Position numbers and translations under genes: made by a program
Notes under the pieces: model-generated
What the model was told of the DNA's origin: nothing
Databases searched by the model: none
Seen by the model: the letters and a program-made list of their open reading frames with translations, nothing else
Part shown: piece after piece, positions 2,891 through 20,285 of the stretch
Position numbering within the stretch: the first letter of the stretch is position 1
Layout of the letters: every line of letters begins with the position of its first letter
Virus genome (UHGV): UHGV-0285350
Origin: a virus
Strand: one strand, 5' to 3'
Length of the DNA: 44,975 bases

Positions 2891-2896
2891 GTCTCA

Positions 2897-2940
2897 CCAT
2901 TTGTGTTAGAAAATACATATTAATTATCTAACACAAATGG
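2897..2940. promoter_or_regulatory. perfect 14-bp inverted repeat (ccatttgtgttaga N16 tctaacacaaatgg) directly upstream of rdgC start; candidate operator
   Basis: Read directly from sequence; halves are exact reverse complements; contains the recurring TGTTAGAA/TTCTAACA motif; AT-rich stem so unlikely to be an intrinsic terminator. Confidence 0.4.
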
Positions 2941-2949
2941 GTGCATTTT

Positions 2950-3603
2950 CTATCCTTTCTTGAAATCGAAGTTGCCAGCAGTGGCCTGAAAGGTTCCTCC
3001 TGCCTTGAAAGCTATGTCTCCGTTAGCGGTGACAGCAATATTTTCCCCTTTAACATTGATGTTGTTGGTTGATTTGACGTTAACACTCCCTCCTGCATTC
3101 ACGATTACATCAGCCGGACCAATGATATATATCTGCCCGGACTCATTCATGCCAATCCTTGAGCCTGCTGCCGTATTGGCAATTTCATAGCCGCCACCAG
3201 CAGTTCGTACTTCAAGAATATTGTTGCGGTGAATAACGAAGTCTTTCGTTGCTGAGATTTGGGGGCGGGGAGGTGCTCCATCTACTTCCGGCGGCGTCCA
3301 GCCGTTGCCTTTGCCAGATGCTTCTGGTGCAACGTTTGGAATTCCTCCCGGTGCATCCTGAGCGGCACCAACTATCATTGGGCGTCTGGTGTCTATTCGA
3401 CCGTTAACATCTAAATAAGGAAACTCTACCCAGACCAGGTCACCTTTGACTGTGGGTACAAAAGCGTTTCCGATGGGTAACAGGTATTCCGCCCAGGGTA
3501 GATCGTCATCAGGAACGCCATTCCAGTCAGGTAAAACACGGACTTGAGCACGCATAAGCCCTGCCGGGTGCACAGTTCCAACAATTTGCGCTCTACGCTT
3601 CAT
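2950..3603 (-). CDS. gpV / gp5-type baseplate spike protein (OB-fold N-domain plus Gly/Asn-rich beta-helix-like C-region)
   Basis: N-terminus IVGTVHPAGLMRAQVRVLPDWNGVPDDDLPWAEYLLPIGNAFVPTVKGDLVWVEF fits the phage baseplate-assembly-V OB-fold pattern; C-terminal repeats (IVNAGGSVNVKSTNNINVKGENIAVTANGDIAFKAGG). Confidence 0.6.
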   Translation of the reverse strand: MKRRAQIVGTVHPAGLMRAQVRVLPDWNGVPDDDLPWAEYLLPIGNAFVPTVKGDLVWVEFPYLDVNGRIDTRRPMIVGAAQDAPGGIPNVAPEASGKGNGWTPPEVDGAPPRPQISATKDFVIHRNNILEVRTAGGGYEIANTAAGSRIGMNESGQIYIIGPADVIVNAGGSVNVKSTNNINVKGENIAVTANGDIAFKAGGTFQATAGNFDFKKG

Positions 3604-4580
3604 TTGTTCGGCACTCCCAATATCATTCGTGTTGTGTAGCCTACGCGGTCTTCAAAGTGCGCAACATTTTTTACTATCAGCTTACGGGGCATTGATTCAT
3701 CAATGCGGTTTTCCTGGTCATAGCGGTATACGATAATCTCTATCACCATCCCCGGTTTTATATCAGGATTGCCTGCGACTTCTATATCCATTTTGGGGAC
3801 GAGAGACAGCTGCATATTGCGAAGAGTTTCCATATCAGAGTCGGATATATAACGCACTGGGAGTGAGCTATCGCCATATTCGACGTAGCCATCGGTCATG
3901 GAATACCCAACAAAACGATATTGATTCTTTGCTGTTGTCGCATGTTCCTGTTGGAGTAGGCGCATTTTGGACAAAGTGTATTCTGCTTTAGGGTTATTCC
4001 CCTCGTAGGTAAATGATGGCGTTTGCTTCATCAGATCAGCCAGGGTGTAAAAGTTAAATTCCCCCCGGCATACCCAACATAATGCACCTTTGTCTCGCGC
4101 TATCTCCGAAAGCATTTTTGACGGTTTGTCACCGGCATTCAGATGATATGTAACTGCGCGTTTTAGCACGCTGCTGGTAATTTTAAGCTTGCCGGAATAT
4201 GCCTTGAATATAGCGTCTGGTGTTTTGTTGGTATGTAAATTTGTGCGCGGGGAGGGGATCTTAAACCTGCGCACGTCTTCACTGACAGCAATAACGGTAA
4301 CAACATCACCAGCCAGCATTGCAGACGTAACAAAGAAATCTGTTTTAAAAGTGCCTGCATTACCGTTTGGATCGCCCATTTCAGCCACCAGCGATGCACC
4401 GTATTTGGCTTTCCAGTCATCAATTACGGTGCCGGTAGCGTCATGAATTTCCAGTTTTAGCAAAGGGGCTTTGAGGCTGGTTTTTTCTACATATACTGCG
4501 GTAAAAATCCAGTCTCGTGGCACTTTGTTATCGTTAATGAGCACTGACTGTAGAAAATATTGTTGTAACTCCTGGGCCAC
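3600..4580 (-). CDS. hypothetical protein, possibly baseplate hub (gpD/gp27-like) partner of the adjacent spike
   Basis: 326-aa ORF translationally coupled (overlapping stop/start) to the spike gene; hub assignment is positional inference only. Confidence 0.3.
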   Translation of the reverse strand: MAQELQQYFLQSVLINDNKVPRDWIFTAVYVEKTSLKAPLLKLEIHDATGTVIDDWKAKYGASLVAEMGDPNGNAGTFKTDFFVTSAMLAGDVVTVIAVSEDVRRFKIPSPRTNLHTNKTPDAIFKAYSGKLKITSSVLKRAVTYHLNAGDKPSKMLSEIARDKGALCWVCRGEFNFYTLADLMKQTPSFTYEGNNPKAEYTLSKMRLLQQEHATTAKNQYRFVGYSMTDGYVEYGDSSLPVRYISDSDMETLRNMQLSLVPKMDIEVAGNPDIKPGMVIEIIVYRYDQENRIDESMPRKLIVKNVAHFEDRVGYTTRMILGVPNK

Positions 4581-4583
4581 TTA

Positions 4584-5351
4584 TCACCCCATAGATATCG
4601 AGGTTTCGGTAATAATACGTTTTGCGTCCAACTCCCATGCTGTGATCACGTCTGCAATCACACTTATCGGCGCTTGTGTGGCATAAATACGCTCTTCTCC
4701 AATTGGTGCTGAAACATCCGTAAAGCCGACTTCTTTGGCATCCTGTATCGAGCAAATCAGCGGGACCGGGACACGAACAAGGTGAGTGGTTGCTTCAAAT
4801 TGTGTACCTGTCATCAGGCGAAGCCGTGCGCCCAGCGAATTACACATCAGACTCATGGTCGCTTTATCAGTTGCCATTAACGTGACGTCATACGTCAGAA
4901 TGGCCTGGGTGTATTCCAGTTCTGCTAAAGGCATTCCGGTATCCGGTTCGCAAAAACTGGCTACTTTTTTGCGGTCAATCTGCTGATCATCGTTGATATA
5001 ATTGATATCCATATTGCGTGAGATATTGACCAGGGGGAGAGCATCCCGGTTAATGTTCTGGTTTTCAGGTTTTCTCCCTTGCCCGGCATTTGCGCGACGA
5101 ACTGCTTTAAGAAACTCGATCGCATTGTCGAAACGGGCCACATAGACACGCTCTGCTGGTGGACGATTCAGGAATGACGCAAAGCGTTTTTCTTCCGGCG
5201 CGGGGGCCACCAGTAAGATATCAGAAAAAATGTTGCTGATTAGCGTCGCAAACGCGTTATCCACGTTTTCAAAGCCCGTGGTCTGGAATTTTCCTGTGCG
5301 TGAGGTTTGCCATTCACCTGTTCGCGCCAGGAGGGTTTTATTTGAAGTCAT
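4584..5351 (-). CDS. hypothetical protein (member of leftward 4-gene module)
   Basis: 255-aa ORF, 3-nt gap to downstream gene and overlapping upstream gene; no motif recognised. Confidence 0.5.
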   Translation of the reverse strand: MTSNKTLLARTGEWQTSRTGKFQTTGFENVDNAFATLISNIFSDILLVAPAPEEKRFASFLNRPPAERVYVARFDNAIEFLKAVRRANAGQGRKPENQNINRDALPLVNISRNMDINYINDDQQIDRKKVASFCEPDTGMPLAELEYTQAILTYDVTLMATDKATMSLMCNSLGARLRLMTGTQFEATTHLVRVPVPLICSIQDAKEVGFTDVSAPIGEERIYATQAPISVIADVITAWELDAKRIITETSISMG

Positions 5352-6139
5352 TCGATCACTCCGTTTTGAGTCGTATCAAAATTCCTGGCAGGTATGCAGT
5401 AGTAAAGCGAACCAACATGCTGTGTGCCGTAGCTAAAAATACGGTGCACGTACCACCAGCGGCGCGCTACGCCGTTTACCATCTCTTCATTCCATTCAAG
5501 AATTGAGCCGACGGGGACGTTATTTGCTGCAATACGCAGAATCAGAACATCATCGGTTAAGCCATCCTGCTCACCGTCTGCGTCAATCGCATGGAAAGAG
5601 TCACGCCCGTCAGGGTTATCCAGCACATAAACGATTTCAGGTTCCTGGTAAGTCAGTTCGCGTTGGTTGTTATCCAGTTCGGTGAATGACTCTTCTCCTG
5701 TTTCGTCGCTGACTACCCCATATGTGCCAACATCTGGTCGATATAAGAGAGCCTGAAACGCGTCTGGGCTGGATTCAATAATCAGCATCCAGTCTGCGCG
5801 GATTTGGTCGTTAAAGGCTTTATGCCCGTTATAGCGTGCTTTTAACTGTGGAGTCGGTTCTCTGCCAGCCAGGGAAGATGGAAGTATGGCTATATCTGAT
5901 TCGCCAGCATCCGGAGTAAGGCCACCGTTGCTATCAGCAAAATTATCATGGCTATCAGCTTTGGCGGCGGGTTGCTCTTCCAGAATGCTGAATGAATCCG
6001 AACCGGTATTGCCATGTTCCGGCGCGCCTCCTGCATTCGCTTCAATCGGCGCTGGCGTTTCTCTCTGCGTGCTGTCATGTTCTGACTCCTTACTTGCCAG
6101 GTTTGCATCGTCAGCAAACCATTCGTCAAAACGGCCCAT
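5348..6139 (-). CDS. hypothetical protein with acidic, low-complexity N-terminal half
   Basis: First gene of the leftward module; start placed at ATG (MGRFDEW...) 6 nt after AGGA; track ORF begins at TTG 6151. Confidence 0.5.
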   Translation of the reverse strand: MGRFDEWFADDANLASKESEHDSTQRETPAPIEANAGGAPEHGNTGSDSFSILEEQPAAKADSHDNFADSNGGLTPDAGESDIAILPSSLAGREPTPQLKARYNGHKAFNDQIRADWMLIIESSPDAFQALLYRPDVGTYGVVSDETGEESFTELDNNQRELTYQEPEIVYVLDNPDGRDSFHAIDADGEQDGLTDDVLILRIAANNVPVGSILEWNEEMVNGVARRWWYVHRIFSYGTQHVGSLYYCIPARNFDTTQNGVIE

Positions 6140-6233
6140 AAGCATCCTCAAAGGTCGATCTGTCAGGTATCGAAAGGAAGATTTTCTGGAGATTGTGATT
6201 TTGGATGAAGGAGGGGGAATTCATAAAATGCAC

Positions 6234-6262
6234 TTGCGCACAGTGCAGCGGTGCGCTATAGT
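6234..6262 (+). promoter_or_regulatory. candidate sigma70 promoter for higBA (-35 TTGCGC, 17-bp spacer, -10 TATAGT) overlapped by inverted repeat GCGCAC-N9-GTGCGC
   Basis: Hexamers and spacing read from sequence; palindrome overlapping the spacer is the usual arrangement for antitoxin autorepression. Confidence 0.4.
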
Positions 6263-6301
6263 TATGGCATTCGGTAATCATCACGGAGGATCAAATGACT
6301 A

Positions 6302-6604
6302 ATGACCAAAAAAATTAACATAAAGGATTTCAGGGATGCGTGGCTTGATGATTTTTTTGAATTTTCAACACCACATAGAAAGATACCTCCTGATATTCAT
6401 ATGACATTGTCACGGAAGTTGGACATTATCAATGCCGCAACTACCTGTAAGGATTTAAGATCACCACCAGGTAATCGGTATGAGGAACTGTCAGGGAAGC
6501 TAAATGGCTATTCATCAGTAAGGGTGAATAAGCAATATAGGTTAATTTTTAAGTGGGTTAACGGAAAGGCCGAGGACTTGTATCTCGACCCTCACAAATA
6601 CTAA
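6302..6604 (+). CDS. higB: type II toxin HigB (RelE/ParE superfamily)
   Basis: C-terminal LSGKLNGYSSVRVNKQYRLIFKWVNGKAEDLYLDPHKY aligns with HigB LKGDREGYWSITVRANWRITFQFINGDAYILNYEDYH; toxin-first order with HTH antitoxin directly downstream. Confidence 0.8.
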   Translation: MTKKINIKDFRDAWLDDFFEFSTPHRKIPPDIHMTLSRKLDIINAATTCKDLRSPPGNRYEELSGKLNGYSSVRVNKQYRLIFKWVNGKAEDLYLDPHKY

Positions 6605-6674
6605 AACAGATACCCGGTTACGGACCGGGTTCTGACCAGAGTCCACTTAATACGCACGCTAGTAAGGGCAAAAA

Positions 6675-7013
6675 ATGAAACAGGCAACCAGAAAACCGAC
6701 GACCGTAGGTGATATCCTGCTGTACGAATACCTGGAGCCGTTAGAGCTGAAGATCAACGAGTTGGCAGAAATACTTCATGTTCATCGTAACACCGTAAGT
6801 GCTCTTGTTAATAATAATCGTAAGCTAACGATGGATATGGCATATCGCCTGGCAAAAGCATTCGATACTTCTGTAGATTTTTGGATTAATCTTCAGACCG
6901 CAGTAGACCTGTGGGAAGTCGAAAATGATATGCGCGTTCAGGAAGAGTTAAGTCGTATCAATACTGCTGAAAAATTTATTTCTCAGCGGAACCTGAATAA
7001 AAAAGCAGCCTGA
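6675..7013 (+). CDS. higA: antitoxin HigA (XRE-family HTH, VapI type)
   Basis: N-terminal HTH LAEILHVHRNTVSALVNNNRKLTMDMAYRLAKAFDTSVDFWINLQ typical of HigA/VapI antidote proteins; immediately downstream of higB. Confidence 0.8.
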   Translation: MKQATRKPTTVGDILLYEYLEPLELKINELAEILHVHRNTVSALVNNNRKLTMDMAYRLAKAFDTSVDFWINLQTAVDLWEVENDMRVQEELSRINTAEKFISQRNLNKKAA

Positions 7014-7069
7014 TATAGTAAAACACATACAAAAAGCCCACTTAGCAAGTGGGCTTTCCTTTGTAATTA

Positions 7070-7372
7070 ATGAACATTAAACCTATCCGTACAGAACAAG
7101 ATTATGAGGCCGCACTGCGTGCGGTCGAACCGATGTTCGATAACGAGGAGTACGAGAAAAAACATTACCCAATTGAGCCACCATCACCTATTGAGGCCAT
7201 TAAATTCCGTATGGAACAGCAAGGGCTGACCGTGAAGGATCTGGAACCGGCGATTGGTAAGTCAAATCGTGTTTACGAAGTGCTAAATGGGACACGAAAT
7301 TTGACGTTACCTATGATTCGCCGTTTACATTCCCAGTTTGGCATTCCTCTTGAAAGCTTGGTTGGTATTTGA
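7070..7372 (+). CDS. second HTH (XRE-type, C-terminal HTH) antitoxin-like regulator
   Basis: C-terminal LTVKDLEPAIGKSNRVYEVLNGTRNLTLPMIRRLHSQFGIPLESL resembles HigA-family antitoxins with C-terminal HTH; no cognate toxin directly upstream. Confidence 0.6.
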   Translation: MNIKPIRTEQDYEAALRAVEPMFDNEEYEKKHYPIEPPSPIEAIKFRMEQQGLTVKDLEPAIGKSNRVYEVLNGTRNLTLPMIRRLHSQFGIPLESLVGI

Positions 7373-7434
7373 GTTTGGCGGTCTGGATGACCGCTATTTT
7401 CATAAAATAGATATTAGAAATCACGGTAGTTTAT

Positions 7435-8163
7435 ATGAATACAGATTCATCAACAGAAAAATTGACTGAAAATGATCTAATCAAAGTATCTTTTGGAGAT
7501 GCCATAAAAGACAAGCTTTTTAATAAAGTGTTTGCATATATATTCATTTCTTTTCTAATTATTAATTGGAAAGATATACTAATATTGATGAAGTCAAAGG
7601 ATGATATCCTATATACTTTATCTGTAACATTTGTTGGAGGTAAGATTCCTCTAGTTTATGAAGGCGTTTTGTCTCCTTGGTTTTATCATTTTTGCTTGCC
7701 ATTTATTTTTGGAATTATTGCATCAATTGCAGCTCCGATTGTCACTCTTTGCGTATCAAAGCTAACAAGTAAAATATATACAGAGATAAGGTATTTGGAT
7801 GCCGACATGGATCAAAATAAAAGAAAGGCGTTGCAAATAAAAGAGACTGAAATAATAAAAAGTATTAATGATACACAATTCAACAAAAGAATTATGGATG
7901 AAAATAAAAATGAACTTGAGAGATTGCTTAGGCAGCAAAAAGAGATTATGGCGGCAATAAAATTATTATATGATGATGTTGGAGTTATCATTGAGCTTTT
8001 TAAAAGTAGAGGGGTTGGTATTGACTCCCCAGAAAAGTTATATGATTTTGTAATGGCAATAAAGAAGACTTCGCTTTATAATGGTGATCATGATTTTAAT
8101 AAATTGGTTGCTGATATTTCAAATTTATTTGATAAAACGGAAATTGATTTTTCAAAAAGATGA
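7435..8163 (+). CDS. hypothetical membrane protein (2 predicted TM helices plus Lys/Glu-rich coiled-coil tail) in strongly AT-rich DNA
   Basis: Hydrophobic segments VFAYIFISFLIINW and FYHFCLPFIFGIIASIAAPIVTLCV; region about 7380-8200 is markedly AT-rich relative to flanks. Confidence 0.6.
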   Translation: MNTDSSTEKLTENDLIKVSFGDAIKDKLFNKVFAYIFISFLIINWKDILILMKSKDDILYTLSVTFVGGKIPLVYEGVLSPWFYHFCLPFIFGIIASIAAPIVTLCVSKLTSKIYTEIRYLDADMDQNKRKALQIKETEIIKSINDTQFNKRIMDENKNELERLLRQQKEIMAAIKLLYDDVGVIIELFKSRGVGIDSPEKLYDFVMAIKKTSLYNGDHDFNKLVADISNLFDKTEIDFSKR

Positions 8164-8196
8164 AAGCCTAGCCTAGGCAGCTAGGCTATGTGTGGT

Positions 8197-9390: not shown

Positions 9391-9712
9391 TTTCTATCTC
9401 CGGTTCCGCGCTCGCGTAATCACGGATCTTGTTCCTCAGCCATGCCACATCAGGAAGAGTTAACGTGGTCCCGGCGGGCATTTCTTCCATTTCTGACTCA
9501 TGGCCCACCAGCACCCGGAATACCCAGCGCAAATCTGCATTGCCATACGCCCTGTAGGCTGCAAGGTCTGAACGATATACTTCATCAATCTTTATCGTGT
9601 ACTGGAAATTATCAGAGTGATACTCCGATACCCGCTTAATCATTTCCTGGTGAAACAGCGCACGAAAAATATCGTCTTCAATGTACCTATCGTCGAGTCT
9701 GCTATAGCCCAT
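9383..9712 (-). CDS. hypothetical protein (upstream partner of SWIM protein, overlapping start/stop)
   Basis: 109-aa ORF whose stop overlaps the start of 8197..9390; no motif recognised. Confidence 0.5.
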   Translation of the reverse strand: MGYSRLDDRYIEDDIFRALFHQEMIKRVSEYHSDNFQYTIKIDEVYRSDLAAYRAYGNADLRWVFRVLVGHESEMEEMPAGTTLTLPDVAWLRNKIRDYASAEPEIENA

Positions 9713-9905
9713 AACAAAGCCTCTCAGTCATAACCTGGGGGAAACTGTATGCAGGGTGTGAAATGCGAGAAACAGACAGGCCACCAGTTCAGGGGGATGT
9801 GGTTCATAAATCCCCTCACTGGTGACAAGTGACTTTCATTAATCTTTATGCGGGGGCCAGCTTCATTTGCTGGCATTAGATTAAAAATTAAACGGAGTGA
9901 ATGAC

Positions 9906-10040
9906 ATGGATGTTATCTTCGAATTATTAATGCTAATTGATCTGTTTATGAACGCTTCATTGACCACTCAAATACTCGCGTCAATATTTTTGTTACTCTT
10001 CTACCTGGTATTGAGGGAGTTAACAAAGCTACTAATGTGA
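9906..10040 (+). CDS. possible small hydrophobic peptide (44 aa, one TM-like segment)
   Basis: ATG after GGAGTG; translation MDVIFELLMLIDLFMNASLTTQILASIFLLLFYLVLRELTKLLM*; AT-rich; below the track's 60-aa cutoff, coordinates from my own reading. Confidence 0.3.
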   Translation: MDVIFELLMLIDLFMNASLTTQILASIFLLLFYLVLRELTKLLM

Positions 10041-10694: not shown

Positions 10695-10721
10695 TTTCCT
10701 TCCTCCACGGATGACGGATAC

Positions 10722-10745
10722 AAAAAAAGGCCGCACATGGCGGCC
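10722..10745 (-). terminator. intrinsic-terminator-like hairpin on minus strand (ggccgc-acatg-gcggcc followed by T7) just upstream of the 10041..10694 gene
   Basis: Stem-loop and adjacent A7 on + strand (T7 on -) read from sequence. Confidence 0.35.
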
Positions 10746-10962
10746 TGCTTTGGCGTTATGACTCCCTACCGCGCTTCGGCTGAAAGTTAATCGTCAAAAG
10801 AACCTTCAACGGGAGCCGTTAGCGCGATGGATTATGTGCAGTTTGTGATTTCCAAAATAGTGTCAACCACTTTTTGTGGATTTTATTTTTTGACCGAAAT
10901 TTGGCCTAAATCATGTTGATGTAGTTAATTGTTTTTATAACATAAAACTTCATTTTGTTTAC

Positions 10963-11586
10963 ATGAAGGATGGTGTAGTGAAGTTAAGGGTTTTAGGGGC
11001 CGCGCTCGCGGCTATGTTGGGATGCGTATCTGCTAATACTGCCAATGCAACTGCGTTACCTGCACAATTCAGGGCAGGGCAGCAGGTTATGAATAACGCT
11101 GGTGGGGATCATTCACAAGCGGCCATTATGGACTTTTGCAAGAGGGAGGGCATTCCATTACGGCCTGTTGGAACTCAGTTTATTGGTAAAACTGACTTTT
11201 GCGTTTTTGCATATACAGCATATCTGACGGGCAAAGCTATAACAAAAACAGGTTACTCAACCAAAGATACTCTTTCCAGATTAAGTCAGGGATGGCAGCA
11301 ATTCGAAGTGTATCGCCAGCAAGGATTAGGTGAGTTATTGCAACCACTTTTTATGCTTGCATTGGTGCCCGAGGGGCAGCAATTTTTGGTTAAAAAGGGA
11401 ATGCTTCGCCAAAGTGATATTGCCGGGTTCGATAGCATGATGGCTTATGAGCGCAAACTAACCGAGCAGCGAAATAAAAAACCATCTGCTTCATGTGTGC
11501 AAAGTAAAACAGCAGAATACAGTGCAGTAGCCGGGCCTTTAGCCAAACAAATGGCAGAGCAATGGTGTAAAAAATACGGGCAATAA
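10963..11586 (+). CDS. hypothetical secreted protein (N-terminal signal peptide)
   Basis: N-terminus KLRVLGAALAAMLGCVSANTANA is signal-peptide-like; true start may be GTG at about 10978. Confidence 0.55.
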   Translation: MKDGVVKLRVLGAALAAMLGCVSANTANATALPAQFRAGQQVMNNAGGDHSQAAIMDFCKREGIPLRPVGTQFIGKTDFCVFAYTAYLTGKAITKTGYSTKDTLSRLSQGWQQFEVYRQQGLGELLQPLFMLALVPEGQQFLVKKGMLRQSDIAGFDSMMAYERKLTEQRNKKPSASCVQSKTAEYSAVAGPLAKQMAEQWCKKYGQ

Positions 11587-11606
11587 GTTACGCAGCGGAG
11601 GCAGAA

Positions 11607-11999
11607 TTGAAAAGATTGGCTATTGCTTTACTGGCGTCTTTCCCTTTGATCGCGAGCGCCGGAAATTTACAAGTTAAGTGCGGTCGGTTTGATATAAAAA
11701 TCTATCCGGATGCCATATTTCTGAATGGGAATAAGGTTGATAACGCACACCGAAAAACTGAATCTGACGTAATGAGCTATGTGTTCCAGGAGTATGCGGA
11801 GATGGGGGGAACTTATACGCTGTACTCGCTGGATGTTCCTTCTCGCGGTGATATGACATTATCCCATCAATGGCAGAACGCCGATGGAGAAGCTCTGCGC
11901 GAGGTTAAAATAGAAAAATGTGGCACTTTCCATTCTTTTAAAGGGAAAGCGCCAAATGTTAAATCTGTGCTTGAAAAACAGCGCACAGGTGAGCTTTAA
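11607..11999 (+). CDS. hypothetical secreted/periplasmic protein (signal peptide)
   Basis: MKRLAIALLASFPLIASA signal peptide with AxA cleavage motif; no other motif recognised. Confidence 0.55.
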   Translation: MKRLAIALLASFPLIASAGNLQVKCGRFDIKIYPDAIFLNGNKVDNAHRKTESDVMSYVFQEYAEMGGTYTLYSLDVPSRGDMTLSHQWQNADGEALREVKIEKCGTFHSFKGKAPNVKSVLEKQRTGEL

Positions 12000-12307
12000 G
12001 CCCCTTTAATCACGGAGATGTCGTTCCCCGTACGATAACGACGGGGAACGGAATTATCCATCAGGTCACGAATTGCTCCCGCTTCACGTAGTTCCTCTGT
12101 TTCCCTGTATCTATTTGTCACCAGATCCAGGCTGGCAATGACTTTGTGCCGGTCATTCGGCATAGCCAATTTTTCTGCCATTATCATCAGCGACAAATCT
12201 TCATCCAGAAGAATTTGATACCAGTTTTTTGATAGTTCTACTTCCCTTATGAGACTGAAACGTCGCTGGATTGTTGCAGCAGAGTAAGTGAAATCTATTT
12301 TCTTCAT
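11996..12307 (-). CDS. hypothetical protein
   Basis: 103-aa ORF; stop overlaps the end of the upstream convergent gene. Confidence 0.45.
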   Translation of the reverse strand: MKKIDFTYSAATIQRRFSLIREVELSKNWYQILLDEDLSLMIMAEKLAMPNDRHKVIASLDLVTNRYRETEELREAGAIRDLMDNSVPRRYRTGNDISVIKGA

Positions 12308-12369
12308 CGTGCGGAGAATCCGGTTATTTAGTAGTTAAAGCCCCGACGACCCCGGGTAACCCTACACCT

Positions 12370-12543
12370 TCAGGCTTTATGCTTGGTTGATTTCTTCTTG
12401 GTTTGCTTGCAGGCGTAGGCCATTGCTTTAGCTTTCACTTCATCCAGTTTACCAGTAATCACTTCTTTTCCGAGAGTGACAAACCAGTCATAGCAACCGC
12501 CAGTAATGTTCTTGATTTGAAAGTTGAGGTAGCGAACAGTCAT
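12370..12543 (-). CDS. possible small basic protein (57 aa, Lys-rich C-terminus)
   Basis: ATG preceded by GGGGGTG SD; translation MTVRYLNFQIKNITGGCYDWFVTLGKEVITGKLDEVKAKAMAYACKQTKKKSTKHKA*; not in track (<60 aa). Confidence 0.35.
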   Translation of the reverse strand: MTVRYLNFQIKNITGGCYDWFVTLGKEVITGKLDEVKAKAMAYACKQTKKKSTKHKA

Positions 12544-12874
12544 TTTGACACCCCCGGCGCGAGTAAAGAATGCAGATTATCGCGTGAGTGGTGGACGACG
12601 AGTGATGGGAAAAGACTGTAGTTGTTCATAGTGTAGTGACTCCTTGCTTTCGGAGCCGCCATCGACTGTTCCACGGTCTGGTGGCGGCGCAATAAAGGCT
12701 GGAACACCGTGAGTCAACGGGGGCTTTTCAGCCACCTATATTGCACCGCCATTGGTATGGCGGCAGCAATCATACGAAAAACTAAATAGTTTGTCTCAAA
12801 AAGTTGACCGGTGTGCCAATCGGTAGTGAATGTACATCGGAGCATTTTTCAATTCAACTTAAAATGTTAGAAAA

Positions 12875-13453
12875 CTAATTTATCAATTCAATCGCCATCT
12901 GATACAACGTCATTTCATCGGCATTGTGCCGCATGAAATCTGCTTTTCCGCCTATTTTTCCATCAGCATGAACAGGGACCAGCCAGGGATATTGTTCTCG
13001 GACCTCGGCTGGCGCTGCGTACTGGTGGTGCCATTTACACAAAGGGAGGACATATTTATGCGCGTTCTCTGCCGTTCTCCCGAAGATATGGTGCAGGGAT
13101 ACCACTGGGCTATGTTGCCCGTGAATATGGCAGGCAATGCAGGGGAGAGTACCGATAGCGGTCTGTATCCGGCGTTCATCGGCTGTGAGTGATCTGCCCT
13201 TCAGGCCGCGTGACGTGCGTGTTTTTTTGGACGGAGTGGATACAGCTTTCTCTTTTCTCCGCTGGTCATATTGCTTTGCTTTTTCAATTCTCTTTTGCCG
13301 ATATTCAGGCGATGCGGCTTTTTCTCTCGCTCGTTGCTGCTGGCGTTGAGCTTGTTGAAGGCGCTTTGCCCTTTGTTCCTCTCGCCAGGCTGGGTCAGCC
13401 AATTTTTGCATGGCTTTTTGTCTCTGTTTCTCCCAATAGCTCTGTTTCTGCAT
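12875..13453 (-). CDS. Ref-like (phage P1 recombination enhancement function) HNH-type nuclease with basic low-complexity N-terminal region
   Basis: N-terminal about 90 aa Arg/Lys/Gln-rich; C-terminal LPCIACHIHGQHSPVVSLHHIFGRTAENAHKYVLPLCKWHHQ has Cys/His spacing of an HNH zinc-finger nuclease; architecture matches P1 Ref as I recall it. Confidence 0.55.
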   Translation of the reverse strand: MQKQSYWEKQRQKAMQKLADPAWREEQRAKRLQQAQRQQQRAREKAASPEYRQKRIEKAKQYDQRRKEKAVSTPSKKTRTSRGLKGRSLTADERRIQTAIGTLPCIACHIHGQHSPVVSLHHIFGRTAENAHKYVLPLCKWHHQYAAPAEVREQYPWLVPVHADGKIGGKADFMRHNADEMTLYQMAIELIN

Positions 13454-13484
13454 GATGGCTGCCTCTTACTTTTCAGCTATTTTT

Positions 13485-13535
13485 CTATGATTGATCAAAA
13501 TAGTTAGATATTCAAAATTGATTTTCTAACACAAA
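13485..13535. promoter_or_regulatory. divergent control region with repeated TTCTA/TTAGA half-sites including TTTTCTAACA
   Basis: ttttcta...tagttagata...attttctaacacaaaac read from sequence between the leftward Ref-like gene and the rightward early operon. Confidence 0.35.
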
Positions 13536-13725
13536 ACATTAATATCATTTCTGATAACTGTTTGGAGGACATGATGCTTATAGCTTTAAGTGCGATCCAC
13601 CAGCCATCTGTGAATGAGATTGGCCTGTTCTATGTGTTGTTTTTCGGGGCGTTGGCGCTACTTGAGCTTGGTATTGAGCTTTTCGCAGTGCTTATGTTTT
13701 GCGTCACGATTTTGGGGAAATTTTG

Positions 13726-14337
13726 ATGGTGAAACGTGTTTTGAAAATTTACATCGCGGGGCCGATGACTGGTTATCCAGATTACAACCGTGCGGCGTTT
13801 AATGCGAAAGCGAGCGAGTTGATGGCTGAAGGGCATATCGTTCTGAATCCAGCTGTGTTACCTGGTGGCCTTTGTCAGAGTGAATACATGGATATTTGCC
13901 TGGCAATGGTGCGTTCTGCTGATGCGATCTACTTGCTCAATCGATGGGAGGAATCGATTGGTGCTCGTGCAGAGCACGCGCTGGCTGAAAAGCTGGGGCT
14001 GACTGTAATTTATGAGTCACCAACCAACATTGAATGCCAGGTTGCTCCGCATATTTACCGGGAACTGGTCAATGCACTGCGTGATATCGCTGCTGTATAT
14101 CACGGCACAGAACAGCTTCGTGAGCGTTTAGCCCATACCATTTTCTATTACCTGTCTTTATCTCATGAGCACAAGCTCCGCCAGAAGGTAATGATCAAAT
14201 TTATCATGAGGTTATCGAAATCCCTGGCAAACGCCGATCCAAAGAATCCATTACCGAAAGAGGCAATGAATTACCTGAAATCCTGCAACGTTGTTTCTGA
14301 AGATGGCGTTCTTTTGGTTAGAAGGAGTTCTGCGTGA
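13726..14337 (+). CDS. DUF4406-like (nucleoside 2-deoxyribosyltransferase-like fold) protein with about 100-aa C-terminal extension
   Basis: KIYIAGPMTGYPDYNRAAFNAKASELMAEGHIVLNPA matches the YIAGPM(T/S)G signature; start at ATG 13726. Confidence 0.55.
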   Translation: MVKRVLKIYIAGPMTGYPDYNRAAFNAKASELMAEGHIVLNPAVLPGGLCQSEYMDICLAMVRSADAIYLLNRWEESIGARAEHALAEKLGLTVIYESPTNIECQVAPHIYRELVNALRDIAAVYHGTEQLRERLAHTIFYYLSLSHEHKLRQKVMIKFIMRLSKSLANADPKNPLPKEAMNYLKSCNVVSEDGVLLVRRSSA

Positions 14338-14366
14338 GCTGGCGGGGATGGGGAAGGGCAGAAATC

Positions 14367-14651
14367 ATGATACTCCGCCAGTGCGCCGGGACTATGACAG
14401 TCGAGAGTATTGGGAGGCTGATCGGGCGTACCGGTAGTGCTGTCAGAACCAAAGCGCGGCAACTGCGGATCTGCATGATTCTGAAAGGAGACTTTCACCC
14501 GTCAGCCAAATACCGGCAGGGCGATATAGAACTGGCACGGCAGCTTCATCGGTGTGGTGTTCCCCGCCGTGAGATCGCGGAAAAACTCGAAATGCCCCTG
14601 GGCATGATTAATCAGTACGTTTATTTCGAAAGGAGAGTGTATGAAGTCTGA
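14367..14651 (+). CDS. hypothetical small protein with two HTH-like segments (putative DNA-binding)
   Basis: Start placed at ATG after GGGAAGGG; track ORF starts at GTG 14334 overlapping the previous stop. Confidence 0.4.
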   Translation: MILRQCAGTMTVESIGRLIGRTGSAVRTKARQLRICMILKGDFHPSAKYRQGDIELARQLHRCGVPRREIAEKLEMPLGMINQYVYFERRVYEV

Positions 14652-15192
14652 AGGTTTAACGCCCGCACAACTGGCAGAGCGTAACGCTGAGTATGTAACG
14701 GAAATTTCCCGACTTGAGAAAGCGTGTGCTGCGCTGGCGGCGGAGAATGCTGGGCTGAAGTCTGAAGCTCCACTTGGTGCCATCGAGAATGGCAGAGCGT
14801 TTGCAGACCGTTTAGAGAATTACCAGTTCGAGTGTGAAGGCGGAAACCTAAACATGTGCAGTGATTGGCAGGAGTTTCGCCGTTGCTTCGAGTATTTATC
14901 TGAATGGGCAATGCATAGCCAGACAGAGCACCCAGCCACCGATGCTTTCCTGGCTGAAGTGAAGACTGAAGCACGCAAGGAGGGCGCTTACTTTGTGGCG
15001 AACAGAATGCTGGCTGCCTGGGAAGCTGGTTTTATTGATGATACTGCGAAGAACGCCGCGGATATTGCCCGGATGATTCTTACCTCTACTGAGTTTATGG
15101 CTAATGCGCCGGAAGGCGATTTTGACCGCTCATTCTCTGATGGCGTTCTCGAAGATATCGCCGCCCAGCTTGGAAAAGGAGGCAAACAGTGA
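14641..15192 (+). CDS. hypothetical protein, paralogue A (coiled-coil N-term; conserved C-terminal domain shared with 16304..17002)
   Basis: Shares ALEAKCAALAAENA(G/R)LK and PATDAFLAEV(K/R)(T/A)EAR(K/N)EG blocks and C-terminal GKGGKQ/RKGSSQ with the downstream paralogue. Confidence 0.6.
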   Translation: MKSEGLTPAQLAERNAEYVTEISRLEKACAALAAENAGLKSEAPLGAIENGRAFADRLENYQFECEGGNLNMCSDWQEFRRCFEYLSEWAMHSQTEHPATDAFLAEVKTEARKEGAYFVANRMLAAWEAGFIDDTAKNAADIARMILTSTEFMANAPEGDFDRSFSDGVLEDIAAQLGKGGKQ

Positions 15193-15377
15193 GTAACCGT
15201 TTTTACATGATGTGCTTGCGTGAAACTGTGGGTAATAACGCCTCATTCCATTGCCATAACGGCAATGGTTACAGTTCTTGGCGCGGCGGAAGCGTTTATG
15301 ATGCAGAAGCATGGCGAGATGGCTATGAAGCAGGGAAAACGCCTGTCGAAGTATATTGTGATGAGTGGGGTGGGTGA
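15189..15377 (+). CDS. small Cys/His-containing protein (62 aa)
   Basis: GTG start overlapping upstream stop (GTGA); stop overlaps methyltransferase ATG (TGAATG); residues C9, HCH, C57. Confidence 0.4.
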   Translation: MSNRFYMMCLRETVGNNASFHCHNGNGYSSWRGGSVYDAEAWRDGYEAGKTPVEVYCDEWGG

Positions 15378-16106
15378 ATGATTTGCCTTCACAACGCAGA
15401 CTGCTTTGACATCTTTCCGCAAATCGCCAGCAACTCCGTAGATCTTGTATGTGCCGATATTCCATATGGAACAACTCGGTGTCGCTGGGATTCTGTTCTC
15501 GACCTGCAGTTGATGTGGAAGCAGATTTACCGTATTTCCAAACCGAACGCTGCAATTGTTCTGTTTTCCGCTCAGCCTTTTACCAGCGTGCTGGTCAACA
15601 GCAATCTTCGTGACTGGAAAACAGAATGGATTTGGGAAAAGCCACACGCGACAGGATTTTTGAACGCAAAAAAACAACCTTTAAGAGCGCATGAAAATAT
15701 TGAAGTTTTTTACAGAAAGCAACCGACATACAACCCACAGATGACGTATGGGCACGCCAGAAAAACCTCAACAAGAGGTAGGCTGAATACTGATGTATAT
15801 GGCGATGCGCTGAAAAAGGTCGTTTACGATTCAACAAGTCGCTATCCGAGAGACGTGCAGAAATTCTCCAGCGACAAGCAAAAGCAGGCACTTCATTCAA
15901 CACAAAAGCCACTGGCTCTGGTGAGATATCTGATTGAAACATATAGCAATATTGGCGACACAGTGTTGGATTTCACTATGGGTAGCGGAACTACTGGCGT
16001 TGCGTGCCAACAATCAGGACGCCGATTTACAGGAATAGAAAAAGATCCAGAAATTTTTCGTATCGCATTAGAGCGTATGGGAATTAAACAGGAGCATGCA
16101 GCATGA
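15378..16106 (+). CDS. DNA methyltransferase, N6-adenine/N4-cytosine beta class
   Basis: Motifs DIPY (catalytic DPPY variant), HSTQKP, and FTMGSGTTGVA (SAM-binding FxGSGTT) in beta-class order. Confidence 0.85.
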   Translation: MICLHNADCFDIFPQIASNSVDLVCADIPYGTTRCRWDSVLDLQLMWKQIYRISKPNAAIVLFSAQPFTSVLVNSNLRDWKTEWIWEKPHATGFLNAKKQPLRAHENIEVFYRKQPTYNPQMTYGHARKTSTRGRLNTDVYGDALKKVVYDSTSRYPRDVQKFSSDKQKQALHSTQKPLALVRYLIETYSNIGDTVLDFTMGSGTTGVACQQSGRRFTGIEKDPEIFRIALERMGIKQEHAA

Positions 16107-16124
16107 TTTTTGTGGAGGCAACCA

Positions 16125-16307
16125 GTGAGCGAAATTAACTATCAAGAACTGCGCGAGGCGGCGGAACAGGCAACGCAAGATGAATGGGTAGCATATATTT
16201 TGCCGGTCATAACGGCATTTATCCTGCGCGCACGTCTGAGGGTAGGCATTGCGGATACTTTATTGACTGGCCTGGCGTCTGTCAGGGGCGGGAGAGCATC
16301 AGCATGA
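16125..16307 (+). CDS. possible small protein (60 aa)
   Basis: GTG 6 nt after GGAGG; stop overlaps start of next gene (ATGA); track lists a longer in-frame ORF from 16110. Confidence 0.35.
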   Translation: MSEINYQELREAAEQATQDEWVAYILPVITAFILRARLRVGIADTLLTGLASVRGGRASA

Positions 16308-17002
16308 GCATCAGAACCTACGCAGTGAATTGCAATGACGCATGGCTAAACACCGAAGGTGATGACATCTCCGGCTCATACGTTAAGTACAAAGACCATC
16401 AGGAAGTGGTTGCCGCTCTTGAGGCCAAGTGCGCGGCGCTGGCAGCGGAGAATGCAAGACTGAAGGCCGGGGCTATGTATTTCTCATATGGCTCTGAATT
16501 TAGTTTCGAGTGTCACAAAACTGCTGAGGAGGCTATCGCTGCTGCTGAGGCTGCAATTGACGACTATAGAGGCGATGCTTGCGATGGATGGAGCGAAGAG
16601 GTCGAAAGCATTTGCTGGGGGGTAATTATTCAGCAGGCAACCAAGGTCGGTGAACGCAAGAAGAGGAAATGCGACAGAGTATCACCATGGATTGAAAGAG
16701 TTTGTGATTATGAGCTTCGACCTAATGTCGAAACCCCAGCCACCGATGCTTTCCTTGCTGAAGTACGTGCTGAAGCACGCAACGAGGGGATTAACTATAC
16801 CGCCAGCCGTCTTGCTGCTGCGTTCAATCACGGATTTATCAATAAGTCTTTGCGTGAAGTTTTCGACGTTACACGCATGATTTTGTCAGCGAAAGAAGAG
16901 TTGGCTAATGAAGCGCATCCGATTGATGGCCTGTCTGGTGAATATGCGGAGAAATCCCTTGAAGAATGGGCGGAACAGATTCGCAAAGGAAGCAGCCAGT
17001 GA
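16304..17002 (+). CDS. hypothetical protein, paralogue B (with Cys-containing insertion)
   Basis: Same conserved blocks as 14641..15192 plus an about 60-aa insertion (CHKTAEEA...CDGWSEEVESICWG...KCDRVSPWIERVCD). Confidence 0.6.
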   Translation: MSIRTYAVNCNDAWLNTEGDDISGSYVKYKDHQEVVAALEAKCAALAAENARLKAGAMYFSYGSEFSFECHKTAEEAIAAAEAAIDDYRGDACDGWSEEVESICWGVIIQQATKVGERKKRKCDRVSPWIERVCDYELRPNVETPATDAFLAEVRAEARNEGINYTASRLAAAFNHGFINKSLREVFDVTRMILSAKEELANEAHPIDGLSGEYAEKSLEEWAEQIRKGSSQ

Positions 17003-17274
17003 ATATCGACACGACAATAACGATCGATACGCTCCTAAATACCGGTCTGGCACTTCTCGGTTGGCTTTACATCATGTCCCGTACCTGGCGATGGCTGGGT
17101 TCCATTTTCCTAAAAGAGTGGAAAAAACGGCGCAAACAGGAACTACGCCAGAAGGCATTAGAAGCGTTCTATGACGCATTTGAACTTAGCCGCATTGAAC
17201 CAGGCACAACAGCCAGAATAGCGACAAAAGGCGACCTGATGATAGTGATGTTCAGACAGGAGAAAACCAAATGA
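16999..17274 (+). CDS. small membrane protein (1 TM)
   Basis: GTGA overlap with upstream stop; hydrophobic LLNTGLALLGWLYIMS followed by basic stretch. Confidence 0.4.
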   Translation: MNIDTTITIDTLLNTGLALLGWLYIMSRTWRWLGSIFLKEWKKRRKQELRQKALEAFYDAFELSRIEPGTTARIATKGDLMIVMFRQEKTK

Positions 17275-17495
17275 CAGAACAGACGATGACAAATCGCGAA
17301 CTTGTTGATGCCGCGATTGAACTTGCTGGCGATTTTTATTCCATGATGGGGTACACGCATCGCCCAGGCTTCAAATATTGGGAGTCTCCGCACCCGCAAG
17401 AGCAACGGGTATTTCAAATGGCCTGCCGCGCTTTTGAAGTTATTCGCGGTTCTGATGTGATGGACGCGGTTGCTGATTTGGAGGATGAAGAGTGA
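17271..17495 (+). CDS. hypothetical protein
   Basis: 74-aa ORF translationally coupled to neighbours. Confidence 0.45.
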   Translation: MTEQTMTNRELVDAAIELAGDFYSMMGYTHRPGFKYWESPHPQEQRVFQMACRAFEVIRGSDVMDAVADLEDEE

Positions 17496-17803
17496 ACACA
17501 ATTAAAGAAATGCCGGTAGAACGTGATGAATATGGCTGCTGGACACATCCGGAGTATGAAAAGTTTTGCGCAGGTCGTGAATATATTTCTACTGAGGAAT
17601 TTGACGCCTGGATGAAGGAAAATAATCTTCAGTGGACTATTCGCAGTATGGATGAAGATGATTTTGATCTGGACGCAGCTGGTCCCGATATTGCCGCCTG
17701 GGAACCGGAGCGACCAGAGGGTGAAGGCTGGTTTGTTGGCTCTATTCATGACACTGAAGATGGTCCGGTTTGTATCTGGCTGCGTGAGAAGGTTGCCGCA
17801 TGA
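17492..17803 (+). CDS. hypothetical acidic protein
   Basis: 103-aa ORF translationally coupled to neighbours. Confidence 0.45.
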
Positions 17804-18492
17804 CCCAGGCTCTGCATGAAGTGAATTTATATAGCCGTATTGATGGTTCTGGCTATAGAAACATATGGGTTGTTGGTGATCTGCATGGTTGCTACACCAG
17901 ACTGATGTCCGAACTCCATCGTGTGGATTTTGACCCGGCGCAGGATTTACTGATATCGGTTGGCGACCTTATCGATCGCGGTACTGAAAATGTCGAATGT
18001 CTGGAACTATTGCAGATGCCCTGGTTCAGGGCAGTAATGGGGAACCATGAGCGGTTGATGCTTGATGCGTTAAGTCCTGATGGCAACGTGAATAACTGGC
18101 TAATGAATGGCGGACAATGGTTCTTCATGCTGGACACTGATCAGGAAATATTAGCCAAGGCGCTGGTGGAGCTGGTAAAGCGTCTGCCATATATCATTGA
18201 GTTGAACGCCGGGCATGAAACTATCGTTATAGCCCATGCCGACTATCCAGGTGGAGAGTACCAGTTCGGTAAGGATGTGTCGCTTTTTGATGTTGTCTGG
18301 TCGCGCAGTCGCGTCGGTGATTCGATAGATGGCATTGGTGGAGAAATCACAGGCGCAGATCGCTTTATCTTTGGGCACACACCGGTACGAAGACCAAAAG
18401 CATACTGGAATCAGCACTACATAGACACGGGCGCGGTTTTTTGCGGAAATCTGACGCTAATGCAGGTGAAGGGAGGGCAGCTTAAAGTCTGA
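17800..18492 (+). CDS. serine/threonine protein phosphatase (lambda-phosphatase-like metallophosphoesterase)
   Basis: Metallophosphatase motifs GDLHG, GDLIDRG, GNHE in canonical order. Confidence 0.85.
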
Positions 18493-18518
18493 TCAAATCA
18501 TTTACGCACTCAAATCAC

Positions 18519-18546
18519 GTTAGAACATTGATTTTAGTTTTCTAAC
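18519..18546. promoter_or_regulatory. inverted repeat GTTAGAA-N14-TTCTAAC upstream of the 18590 operon; candidate operator
   Basis: Read from sequence; same motif family as 2897-2940 and 13522-13531. Confidence 0.35.
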
Positions 18547-18589
18547 ATATTATTTTACCGATCGGAACAAAACAGAGTCGGTATGCATT

Positions 18590-19585: not shown

Positions 19586-19589
19586 TGAG

Positions 19590-20282: not shown

Positions 20283-20285
20283 ACC

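Follow-up and report, generated by a model that had tools for sequence, protein, structure and literature searches.

A short motif recurs in several control regions of a viral sequence of 44,975 nucleotides (UHGV-0285350; the whole of this stretch is called the window below), which raises the question of what recognises it. The original prediction had placed the motif at four positions, as inverted repeats or half-sites, and took it for the binding site of one regulator coordinating the leftward and rightward accessory operons. All four occurrences were recovered, and the architecture they share is far above chance. The window itself is composite. The part from position 1 to about 21980 shares 96-99.5% identity with phage D6 and D6-like plasmids and represents a D6-like phage-plasmid of the P1 family; the remainder is a Mu-like phage, and the D6-like part is cut off at the junction. 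The Mu-like half contains no copy of the motif.

The 8-mer TGTTAGAA proved to be the core of a longer, asymmetric site, TRTGTTAGAAAAYTAATTT, of about 17-21 bp, and the information-rich columns of the site matrix cover about 17 bp. The sequences first described as half-sites are thus present, but they are complete asymmetric sites rather than halves of a short palindrome. By itself the 8-mer is modestly enriched, about 4-fold (4 copies for 0.99 expected; 1 shuffle in 100 reaches 4). The extended pattern GTTAGAW-N14-WTCTAAC gave 3 perfect matches and one with two mismatches for 0.18 expected, and this was reached in none of 100 shuffles. A matrix trained only on the 8 D6 sites lying outside the region homologous to the window (held-out matrix) gave the five main sites of the window scores of 18.7-26.7 bits; over 40 randomised windows the best score was 18.1 bits, and the mean best score 12.4. 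With the full matrix, for which all 13 D6 sites served as training set (five of them orthologous to sites in the window), 5 matches of at least 20 bits were found in positions 1-21980 and none in 21981-44975, for 0.0 expected. An unbiased count of k-mers over the entire D6 genome led to the same sequences: TGTGTTAGAA, GTGTTAGAAA and TGTTAGAAAA are the top over-represented 10-mers among those occurring more than once, with 7-10 copies each for 0.1-0.3 expected.

The window contains one lone site, at the ref stop codon, and three face-to-face pairs, located upstream of the rdgC-methylase genes, in the gap separating ref from the early operon whose last gene is ppp, and in front of a pdcB-like cassette. 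Paired sites stand at a fixed 17-bp offset, with their GTTAGA cores 22 bp apart, or about two helical turns. Inverted partners were seen at 4 loci, always at offset 17, and the other sites have none; most D6 sites are single and asymmetric, without inverted partner. This is not the picture of a symmetric dimer, for which all sites would be two-fold pairs of half-sites about one helical turn apart. Among relatives the cores are kept, and the neighbouring bases are variable.

Upstream of rdgC, the perfect 14-bp inverted repeat announced by the original prediction was confirmed (CCATTTGTGTTAGA, 2897-2910, and TCTAACACAAATGG, 2927-2940); it extends to 18 nt with 94% complementarity. This extended repeat (2897..2940, minus strand), delineated from the repeat itself, its RNA fold and paired changes in relatives, encloses two putative operators. 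Copy a, TTTGTGTTAGAAAATACATAT (2900..2920, plus strand; 24.3 bits with the full matrix, 18.7 bits held-out), covers the predicted transcription start and 5′ leader, and is kept in relatives whose RdgC is 77-100% identical. Copy b, TTTGTGTTAGATAATTAATAT (2917..2937, minus strand; 26.9 bits), at a 17-bp offset from copy a, overlaps the −10 GATAAT (2928-2923) of a predicted minus-strand promoter, TAGAAA-18-GATAAT. The leftward unit presumed, by analogy with P1, to be under this pair comprises rdgC/hrdC and two DNA methyltransferase genes (423..2890, minus strand; identified from the ORFs and the annotation of D6 orf65-63), and in P1 the operator Odmt precedes uhr-hrdC-dmt.

The Ref-like gene (12875..13453, minus strand; its D6 counterpart, orf87, is annotated "Ref-like RecA filament endonuclease") has a site at both ends. 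At its 3′ end, TGTTAGAA at 12865-12872 adjoins the stop codon (12875-12877), and belongs to a single putative operator overlapping that codon, AAAATGTTAGAAAACTAATTT (12861..12881, plus strand; 27.0 bits, 24.9 bits held-out), which lies upstream of a leftward small-ORF/pmgF unit and is invariant in 21 related loci. At the other end, the region between ref and the early operon carries GTTAGAT at 13503 and TTCTAACA at 13524-13531. The main site of this divergent control region, TTTGTGTTAGAAAATCAATTT (13515..13535, minus strand; 28.3 bits, 25.2 bits held-out), covers the −35 TTGATT and the spacer of a predicted rightward promoter, TTGATT-16-TAATAT (13518-13545). Its weak inverted partner (13498..13518, plus strand; 10.8 bits), at the fixed 17-bp offset, overlaps the −35 TTGAAT (13515-13510) of the predicted leftward ref promoter; the partner has a TCTAAC core in 19 of 21 D6-type ref loci (L039-L059) and TCTAAT in the other 2, with adjacent bases varying freely. 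The 13515 site is presumed to control the rightward early operon (13574..18492, plus strand), which, according to ORFs, Pfam and D6 annotation, contains a DUF4406 gene, an N6/N4 methylase gene and, as its last gene, the ppp metallophosphoesterase gene.

Upstream of the 18590 ORF, GTTAGAA-N14-TTCTAAC is found at 18519-18546. The main site here, AATATGTTAGAAAACTAAAAT (18531..18551, minus strand; 28.5 bits, 26.7 bits held-out), fills the spacer of a predicted promoter, TTGATT-17-TATTTT (18528-18556), and has a weak inverted partner at a 17-bp offset (18514..18534, plus strand; 10.8 bits, 15.1 bits for the D6 orthologue). In a relative whose C1 protein is 44% identical (L142), a 29.3-bit site occupies the corresponding place upstream of the DUF968 gene. 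The presumed target is the pdcB-like cassette, composed of DUF968/HNH, PAPS-reductase-like and other genes (18590..21640, plus strand; from ORFs and plasmid annotations). Between mat and the ORF at 10963, TTTATGTTATAAAAACAATTA (10926..10946, minus strand) is a candidate operator of low affinity; its status is uncertain, its scores of 15.8 bits and 15.0 bits held-out falling inside the range reached by randomised sequence (maximum 18.1). Altogether, every site overlaps a predicted sigma-70 promoter, and five transcription units, early ones of the lytic cycle, are concerned; these promoters are weak consensus matches, only one of which was found by a strict scan. The presence of one conserved site type at the predicted promoters of five units supports, at the sequence level, the idea that a single regulator acts at several control regions.

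The distribution of the site in D6 points to the identity of this regulator. Sixteen sites of at least 17 bits are found in the D6 genome, 15 of them between annotated genes or overlapping a stop codon by a few bases, so that non-coding control regions are favoured. One lies 32 bp upstream of the start of c1, and others precede lpa, repL, icd/ant and pmgS; at these places P1 has annotated C1 operators, of its own, unrelated sequence. The lpa and repL copies (24.8 and 18.4 bits, respectively) had no part in training the matrix, and both genes are controlled by C1 in P1 (PMC8546580). The c1-upstream site is invariant in 30 related viral contigs with C1 79-100% identical, and copies were also found in relatives with C1 51% and 44% identical. 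D6-type sites at ref and a D6-type C1 occur together in at least 11 contigs. All relatives examined (C1 44-100% identical) keep the same core, hence no covariation of operator and repressor was seen inside the D6 clade; operator type and repressor type were seen to swap together only between the clades of P1 and D6. D6 C1 is a member of Pfam family PF27008 (Phage_P7_repressor_C1), and aligns with P1 C1 over 240 residues (E = 2e-8, 21% identity; 345 aa versus 283 aa).

We consider it probable that the D6-type C1 prophage repressor, distantly homologous to P1/P7 C1, recognises an operator of which this motif forms the core. Binding, repression and the identity of the binder are proposed here from position, conservation and analogy to P1. 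The match with the annotated P1 operators is position by position: Odmt, upstream of uhr-hrdC-dmt, is the counterpart of window 2900-2937, Omat, which overlaps the P1 ref stop, that of the 12861 operator, and both Oref and Oppp, the latter upstream of the ppp-containing operon, correspond in position to the 13515 operator; Oc4, OrepL, Olpa and the c1 operators have their counterparts in D6 sites outside the window. The coordination of several operons first proposed is thus backed by a shared site, but, judging from the match with Odmt, Oref, Omat and Oppp, the units would form a P1-type early C1-controlled regulon and not merely a set of accessory genes. No C1 homologue was found to be encoded across the 45-kb window, in line with the earlier remark that it holds no repressor gene; the most likely binder, a D6-type C1, would be the product of a gene located elsewhere on the replicon.

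In the plasmid-prophage state, C1 produced from this gene outside the window would occupy the sites. Since each of them coincides with the −35, spacer, −10 or start of a predicted promoter, access of RNA polymerase would be blocked, and inactivation of C1 by an antirepressor would switch on all units together. Paired sites probably give stronger or cooperative repression.

Another DNA-binding protein encoded by the phage could instead act as a dimer on inverted repeats, either the XRE-type protein 7070-7372, a homologue of D6 orf72, or the HigA-like antitoxin 6675-7013. Both have an HTH_3 domain, and inverted repeats are present at three of the window sites. We nevertheless regard this as unlikely. 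Most D6 sites are partnerless, and the half-sites of XRE dimers are typically spaced by about 10 bp, far less than the distance between the paired cores. No site is found near the promoters of the XRE and HigA genes (6150-7100). Homologues of 7070-7372, which had been put forward as a candidate binder, are mostly on unrelated plasmids (Piscirickettsia, Vibrio, Xanthomonas and others); on Escherichia and Salmonella plasmids they number about 65, versus 124 for D6-type C1 and 128 for the ref operator region. The window copy is moreover shortened by an indel relative to D6 orf72, from 119 to 100 residues. The second candidate put forward, 14367..14651, is also a less likely binder, the corresponding ORF (14334-14651) having given only a sub-threshold match to sigma-70 region 4.

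Somewhat less probable still is a host-factor site or some specialised promoter element (a late-promoter box, for example) in place of a repressor operator. The sites are indeed AT-rich and overlap promoter-like hexamers. However, P1 and a locus whose Ref is 48% identical (L060) carry at the orthologous positions, upstream of ref and at the ref stop, ATTGCTCTAAT-type sites, that is, the completely different and experimentally known C1 operator, and no D6-type site, which is unexpected for a host factor. The D6-type site is absent from P1, where no match exceeds 15.4 bits. As for a late promoter, the P1-type box AAGTGACT-N5-TANNNT differs in sequence and is located elsewhere (9827-9845), and the genes preceded by the motif include lpa and c1 but not those of the structural late operons.

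The inverted repeats might also work through nucleic-acid structure, by forming RNA hairpins or DNA cruciforms, instead of binding a protein. The rdgC repeat lends itself to such a reading: its RNA fold reaches −21.5 kcal/mol (z −4.8), and in its outer helix 5 of 7 pairs are changed on both sides among relatives, compensatory changes that maintain the stem. Yet only this one site fits: neither the ref-stop site nor most of the D6 sites are partnered, and those partners present at 13498 and 18514 are degenerate. At rdgC the predicted promoter start lies inside the hairpin loop. No intrinsic terminator was found by scanning 2800-3000 and 18400-18650; the hairpin at rdgC, AT-rich and lacking a U-tract after it, is therefore not an intrinsic terminator. 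As a general explanation, structure fails and is very improbable; as an additional role of the rdgC site it is possible, though doubtful. The C1 recognition sequence does not include the bases of the outer stem, and the repeat could fold into a hairpin in RNA when transcription runs through from gene 5. We tentatively suggest, without giving it much weight, that this operator pair is dual-purpose, binding two C1 as DNA and folding into a hairpin in late read-through transcripts of tail gene 5. If so, the hairpin could stabilise the 3′ end of the late mRNA or mask the rdgC ribosome-binding site, and would insulate the early operon from the upstream late operon. Finally, chance recurrence in AT-rich intergenic DNA, to which only the roughly 4-fold enrichment of the bare 8-mer would lend itself, is refuted almost beyond doubt by shuffles that never reached the extended and paired patterns and by the conservation of the sites at orthologous positions in diverged relatives.

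Among known systems, HigA/XRE antitoxin operators come to mind because genes for a HigB/HigA pair and a further XRE protein lie close by and such proteins bind inverted repeats; they differ in that the promoters of those genes lack the motif, and in spacing and the many single sites. The lambda cI/Cro type shares with D6-type sites the overlap of prophage repressor sites with early promoters. Lambda operators, however, are dimer sites of 17 bp that are symmetric and grouped within a single immunity region beside the repressor gene, whereas D6-type sites are asymmetric and dispersed over tens of kilobases, with the repressor gene distant.

The closest likeness is with P1/P7, where one repressor of the same family, PF27008, serves many operators spread over a plasmid-prophage of about 90 kb. 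P1 has 22 dispersed C1 operators with an asymmetric 17-bp consensus (PMC8546580). In both systems the sites are asymmetric, of about 17 bp, and lone or in overlapping inverted pairs, as in P1 Obanab; taking the 17-mer TGTTAGAAAAYTAATTT as the site, the overlap is about 4 bp in the D6 type versus 6 bp in Obanab. The annotation of the 226 bp preceding D6 c1 shows no coi gene, and the co-repressor Lxc is reported to be absent from D6-like plasmids (PMC6799933). The main difference is the recognition sequence, TGTTAGAAAAYTAATTT being unrelated to the P1/P7 consensus ATTGCTCTAATAAATTT. No P1-type site (ATTGCTCTAATAAATTT) of at least 12 bits was found in the window, so that specificity differs and the D6 type would be a sister system, not P1/P7 operators proper. 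Likewise, the similarity of the D6-type and P1-type matrices is not significant (31% of column-permuted controls score as well), and what ties the sites to C1 is therefore their position and architecture, with no contribution from sequence resemblance. Dispersed C1 operators would thus represent a control system of a known kind, with a recognition sequence unlike that of P1. The two lineages, P1 and D6, may offer a case in which an entire regulon, with its some 16-22 dispersed operators, was re-specified in place to an unrelated sequence.

Copies of a core sequence containing GTTAGA had been reported in the original prediction at several control regions, and these copies were found as described. 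Upstream of rdgC, in the gene 5/rdgC gap, a perfect 14-bp inverted repeat is present at positions 2897-2910 and 2927-2940. The core TGTTAGAA (12865-12872) directly adjoins the ref stop codon, GTTAGAT at 13503 and TTCTAACA at 13524-13531 are located between the Ref-like gene and the early operon, and the inverted repeat GTTAGAA-N14-TTCTAAC is found at 18519-18546, upstream of the 18590 cassette. The 8-mer alone is enriched about 4 fold in the window, with 4 copies for 0.99 expected, a number reached in 1 of 100 shuffles. The architecture GTTAGAW-N14-WTCTAAC is identical at three places in the window; with up to 2 mismatches it gives 4 matches for 0.18 expected, and this was never reached in shuffled DNA.

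All the operator sites found fall in the D6-like part of the window (1 to ~21980), which is a P1-family phage-plasmid and matches Escherichia phage D6 (NC_050154, 61213-82691) in collinear blocks of 96-99.5% identity, as do many plasmids of ~90 kb from E. coli and Salmonella. Alignment of the copies in the complete D6 genome indicated that the 8-mer is the core of a longer asymmetric site, of consensus TRTGTTAGAAAAYTAATTT, whose information is spread across ~17-21 columns. The recurring core therefore stands, and the description is refined to that of a longer asymmetric operator, present both singly and in pairs. In an unbiased k-mer census of D6, TGTGTTAGAA, GTGTTAGAAA and TGTTAGAAAA came top among the 10-mers present more than once (7-10 copies, 0.1-0.3 expected). 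A position matrix trained on 8 D6 sites only, all outside the region homologous to the window, gives scores of 18.7-26.7 bits to the five main window sites, the maximum over 40 randomised windows being 18.1. With the full matrix, sites of at least 20 bits number 5 in the D6-like part of the window, 0 in its Mu-like part, 13 in D6, 0 in P1 and about 0 in simulations.

Three face-to-face pairs are present in the window (2900/2917, 13498/13515 and 18514/18531), always at a matrix offset of 17 bp, which places the GTTAGA cores 22 bp apart, and a single site (12861-12881) has no inverted partner. The 17-bp offset is also seen at the lpa site of D6 relatives; the majority of other D6 sites are single. 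Weak partners also appear, on sequence grounds, to be under selection, because the core of the one at ref is kept (TCTAAC in 19 of 21 D6-type loci, TCTAAT in 2) while the adjacent bases vary freely.

Every strong window site lies either between genes or across a stop codon. Of the 16 D6 sites of at least 17 bits, 15 do likewise, the overlap being a few bases where a stop codon is involved. The strong window sites each coincide in part with a predicted sigma-70 promoter as well; these promoters match the consensus weakly, come from a relaxed weighted scan and are predictions only, a strict scan having recovered the rdgC promoter alone. The operator pair at 2900-2937 covers the -10 and the start of this predicted rdgC promoter (TAGAAA-18-GATAAT, minus strand). 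Between ref and the early operon, the operator at 13515-13535 covers the -35 and spacer of the predicted early-operon promoter (TTGATT-16-TAATAT, 13518-13545), and that at 13498-13518 covers the predicted -35 of the leftward ref promoter (TTGAAT, 13515-13510). The operator at 18531-18551 covers the spacer of the predicted pdcB-like promoter (TTGATT-17-TATTTT, 18528-18556). Finally, for the operator at 12861-12881, the candidate promoters are TTGAAT-16-TAACAT (12891-12864) or one just downstream, which would serve the leftward small-ORF/pmgF unit. At 12345-12376, the window lacks D6 74000-75490, that is, the icd/antirepressor (Rha/KilA-like) module and orf84, located downstream of the ref-stop operator in D6, so that operator 12861 precedes only two small ORFs and the pmgF homologue.

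On the minus strand at 10926-10946, in the gap between mat and the 10963 ORF, a weak match to the operator was also noted, with one mismatched core (TGTTATA); its score of 15-16 bits is within the range of random maxima, and D6 keeps a counterpart at 72195-72215. A small palindrome with a GATC (Dam) site, TTTTACCGATCGGAACAA, is found at 18553-18570, after the predicted -10 of the pdcB-like promoter and ahead of the start codon; the annotation of P1 describes Dam sites as modulators of some of its promoters. No Rfam family, C4 antisense RNA included, was matched in the whole window.

The proposal that the motif is the site of one regulator acting at several control regions is thus supported, and it was correctly remarked that the window encodes no repressor, c1 being absent from it. 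The window sites are probably operators of C1, the master prophage repressor, whose binding is putative, and the most likely binder is the D6-type C1, encoded outside the window. The D6 protein, of 345 aa (D6 227-1264), belongs to PF27008 (Phage_P7_repressor_C1) and shares 21% identity with P1 C1 over 240 residues (E = 2e-8); its type is found in 141 PLSDB plasmids. A D6 copy of 26.9 bits is located 32 bp upstream of the c1 start and is invariant in 30 viral contigs with C1 79-100% identical, which also retain sites near dre/cre and upstream of lpa. Two sites outside the matrix training set fall upstream of lpa and repL, both of which are under C1 control in P1 (PMC8546580). On two viral contigs with more distant C1 (L141 and L142, 51% and 44% identical), TGTTAGAAAA sites are found upstream of c1, lpa, the recombinase-side operon and the DUF968 (pdcB-like) gene. 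All C1 relatives within the D6 clade, down to 44% identity, go with the same TGTTAGAAAA core, and no specificity change was found among them; a profile search of genome contigs with the C1 alignment returned zero relatives. A D6-type C1 is also encoded by at least 11 of the contigs that have D6-type sites at ref. P1 and a P1-type relative, the viral contig L060 with a Ref 48% identical, carry sites of the ATTGCTCTAAT type ahead of ref and at the ref stop, and no D6-type site. Operator type swaps with repressor type between P1 and D6. The L060 contig was not among the 80 matches listed in a search of viral contigs with P1 C1, all of them near-identical P1 C1 loci, so the swap rests on P1 itself and on the operator types of L060.

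The binder could instead be the XRE-type protein encoded at 7070-7372, a candidate of the original prediction, or the HigA-like antitoxin (6675-7013), but both fit poorly. Their own promoters carry no site, single sites form the majority, and within the pairs the cores are too widely spaced for XRE-type dimers. Moreover, most homologues of the 7070 protein come from unrelated plasmids, and the Escherichia and Salmonella plasmids having one number ~65, versus 124 for D6-type C1 and 128 for the ref operator region. These genes belong to a segment inserted among tail genes (6302-7372), which comprises a HigB-like toxin gene (6302-6604), the HigA/XRE antitoxin gene and the further HTH_3 gene, whose product has 100 aa versus 119 aa in D6, owing to an indel of ~56 bp. 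That the motif is the site of a host factor is unlikely, because P1 carries a different, known operator at the same positions. A late-promoter box is likewise unlikely, the P1-type box being a distinct sequence located elsewhere in the window: on the plus strand, 9827-9845, in the gene 26/mat gap, fits the late-promoter pattern of P1 (AAGTGACT-N5-TANNNT) exactly, and the P1 late promoters LP26/LPpmgL are in the same region, adjoining gene 26. Chance recurrence is excluded by the shuffles and the conservation.

At rdgC, the palindrome extends past the C1 core, with an outer stem of 2897-2903 and 2934-2940. The arms of this stem differ in sequence in relatives whose RdgC is 77-78% identical, yet stay complementary (GCAAAACTG...CAGTTTTGC versus CCATTTG...CAAATGG). 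In the alignment, which holds few lineages, 5 of the 7 outer pairs changed on both sides, and paired cells amount to 83%; sliding the partner columns brings this to 29-53%. Folding of the minus strand gives -21.5 kcal/mol (z -4.8). The 5′ flanks of the other operators of the same genomes are not conserved, therefore protein recognition alone does not explain this symmetry. It is possible, on these few lineages, that the palindrome forms a hairpin in late transcripts reading through out of gene 5, or that it reflects passive homogenisation via template switching. Such a hairpin is not an intrinsic terminator, since it has no U-tract; the end of the stem overlaps the rdgC Shine-Dalgarno sequence. 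On two viral contigs of ~57-90 kb with RdgC 61% identical (L082/L083), the element upstream of rdgC reads TGTTAGATT-N-AAATCTAAACA, with a spacing 2 bp shorter and a TCTAAA core, and may be a variant operator type of another clade.

The rest of the window, from ~21360-21795 to its end, is a Mu-like phage (gemA, mor, lysis genes, terminase, DUF935 portal gene, sheath and tape-measure genes) matching a Mu-like prophage integrated into an F plasmid of E. albertii. At the junction (21360-21980), the D6-like phage-plasmid is fused to a Mu-like middle and late region (21795-44975), the Mu-like repressor/transposase left end being missing from the window, and both parents overlap in a common ead/Ea22-like segment of ~200-600 bp. 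The complete E. coli genomes and the PLSDB plasmids all lack this junction at a coverage threshold of 80%, so it represents a new recombinant or else a chimera made during assembly across the shared repeat. Within the D6-like part, two segments are replaced relative to D6: at 11020-12082, ORFs without Pfam match take the place of the simB-like gene and orf80, and with the segment at 14759-16987 the early operon gains an N6/N4 DNA methylase gene (15378-16106). Chi sites (GCTGGTGG) occur 17 times between 584 and 19238, in both orientations, for 1.9 expected, a number reached in 0 of 100 shuffles; all are in the D6-like part and none in the Mu-like part. Chi is the top 8-mer of the D6 genome (53 copies), and P1 is known to be Chi-rich.

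Escherichia, Salmonella and Shigella commonly carry D6-like phage-plasmids, and the operator consensus gives the immunity specificity of their clade. It also predicts the genes silent in the prophage: rdgC-methylases, ref, the early operon, the pdcB-like cassette, lpa and repL. The D6 GenBank records NC_050154 (RefSeq genome) and AY753669 (immC fragment) annotate no operators, and a full-text literature search with the motif string and D6 operators did not find the consensus; an earlier publication is possible, for example in the D6 genome or immC/Dre papers.

The repression mechanism itself is textbook P1 biology. The D6-type sites correspond in position to P1 Odmt upstream of uhr-hrdC-dmt, Oref upstream of ref, Omat overlapping the ref stop, and Oppp upstream of the ppp-containing operon; the counterparts of Oc4, OrepL and Olpa are D6 sites outside the window. 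The P1 operator core is also present at 94647 and 94724, adjoining c1 at the P1 genome end. P1 operators are asymmetric 17-mers (PMC8546580), single or in an overlapping inverted pair (Obanab), a logic shared by the D6-type sites. The D6-type system therefore has the architecture of the P1/P7 C1 regulon but not its sequence: the window is without P1-type sites, and the operator matrices are not significantly similar. By eye, a common AT-rich 3′ half (8 of 17 positions) had hinted at kinship of the operator sequences, which was dropped because the matrix score is no better than that of 31% of column-permuted controls. Between P1 and D6, the positions of a dispersed regulon are conserved and the recognition sequence has been completely replaced, in place, which raises the question of how a repressor with ~20 scattered targets changes specificity. 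The D6-type C1 and its operator would provide an orthogonal repressor/operator pair beside P1 C1, and we conclude that the D6-type operators are a sister specificity within a known kind of system.
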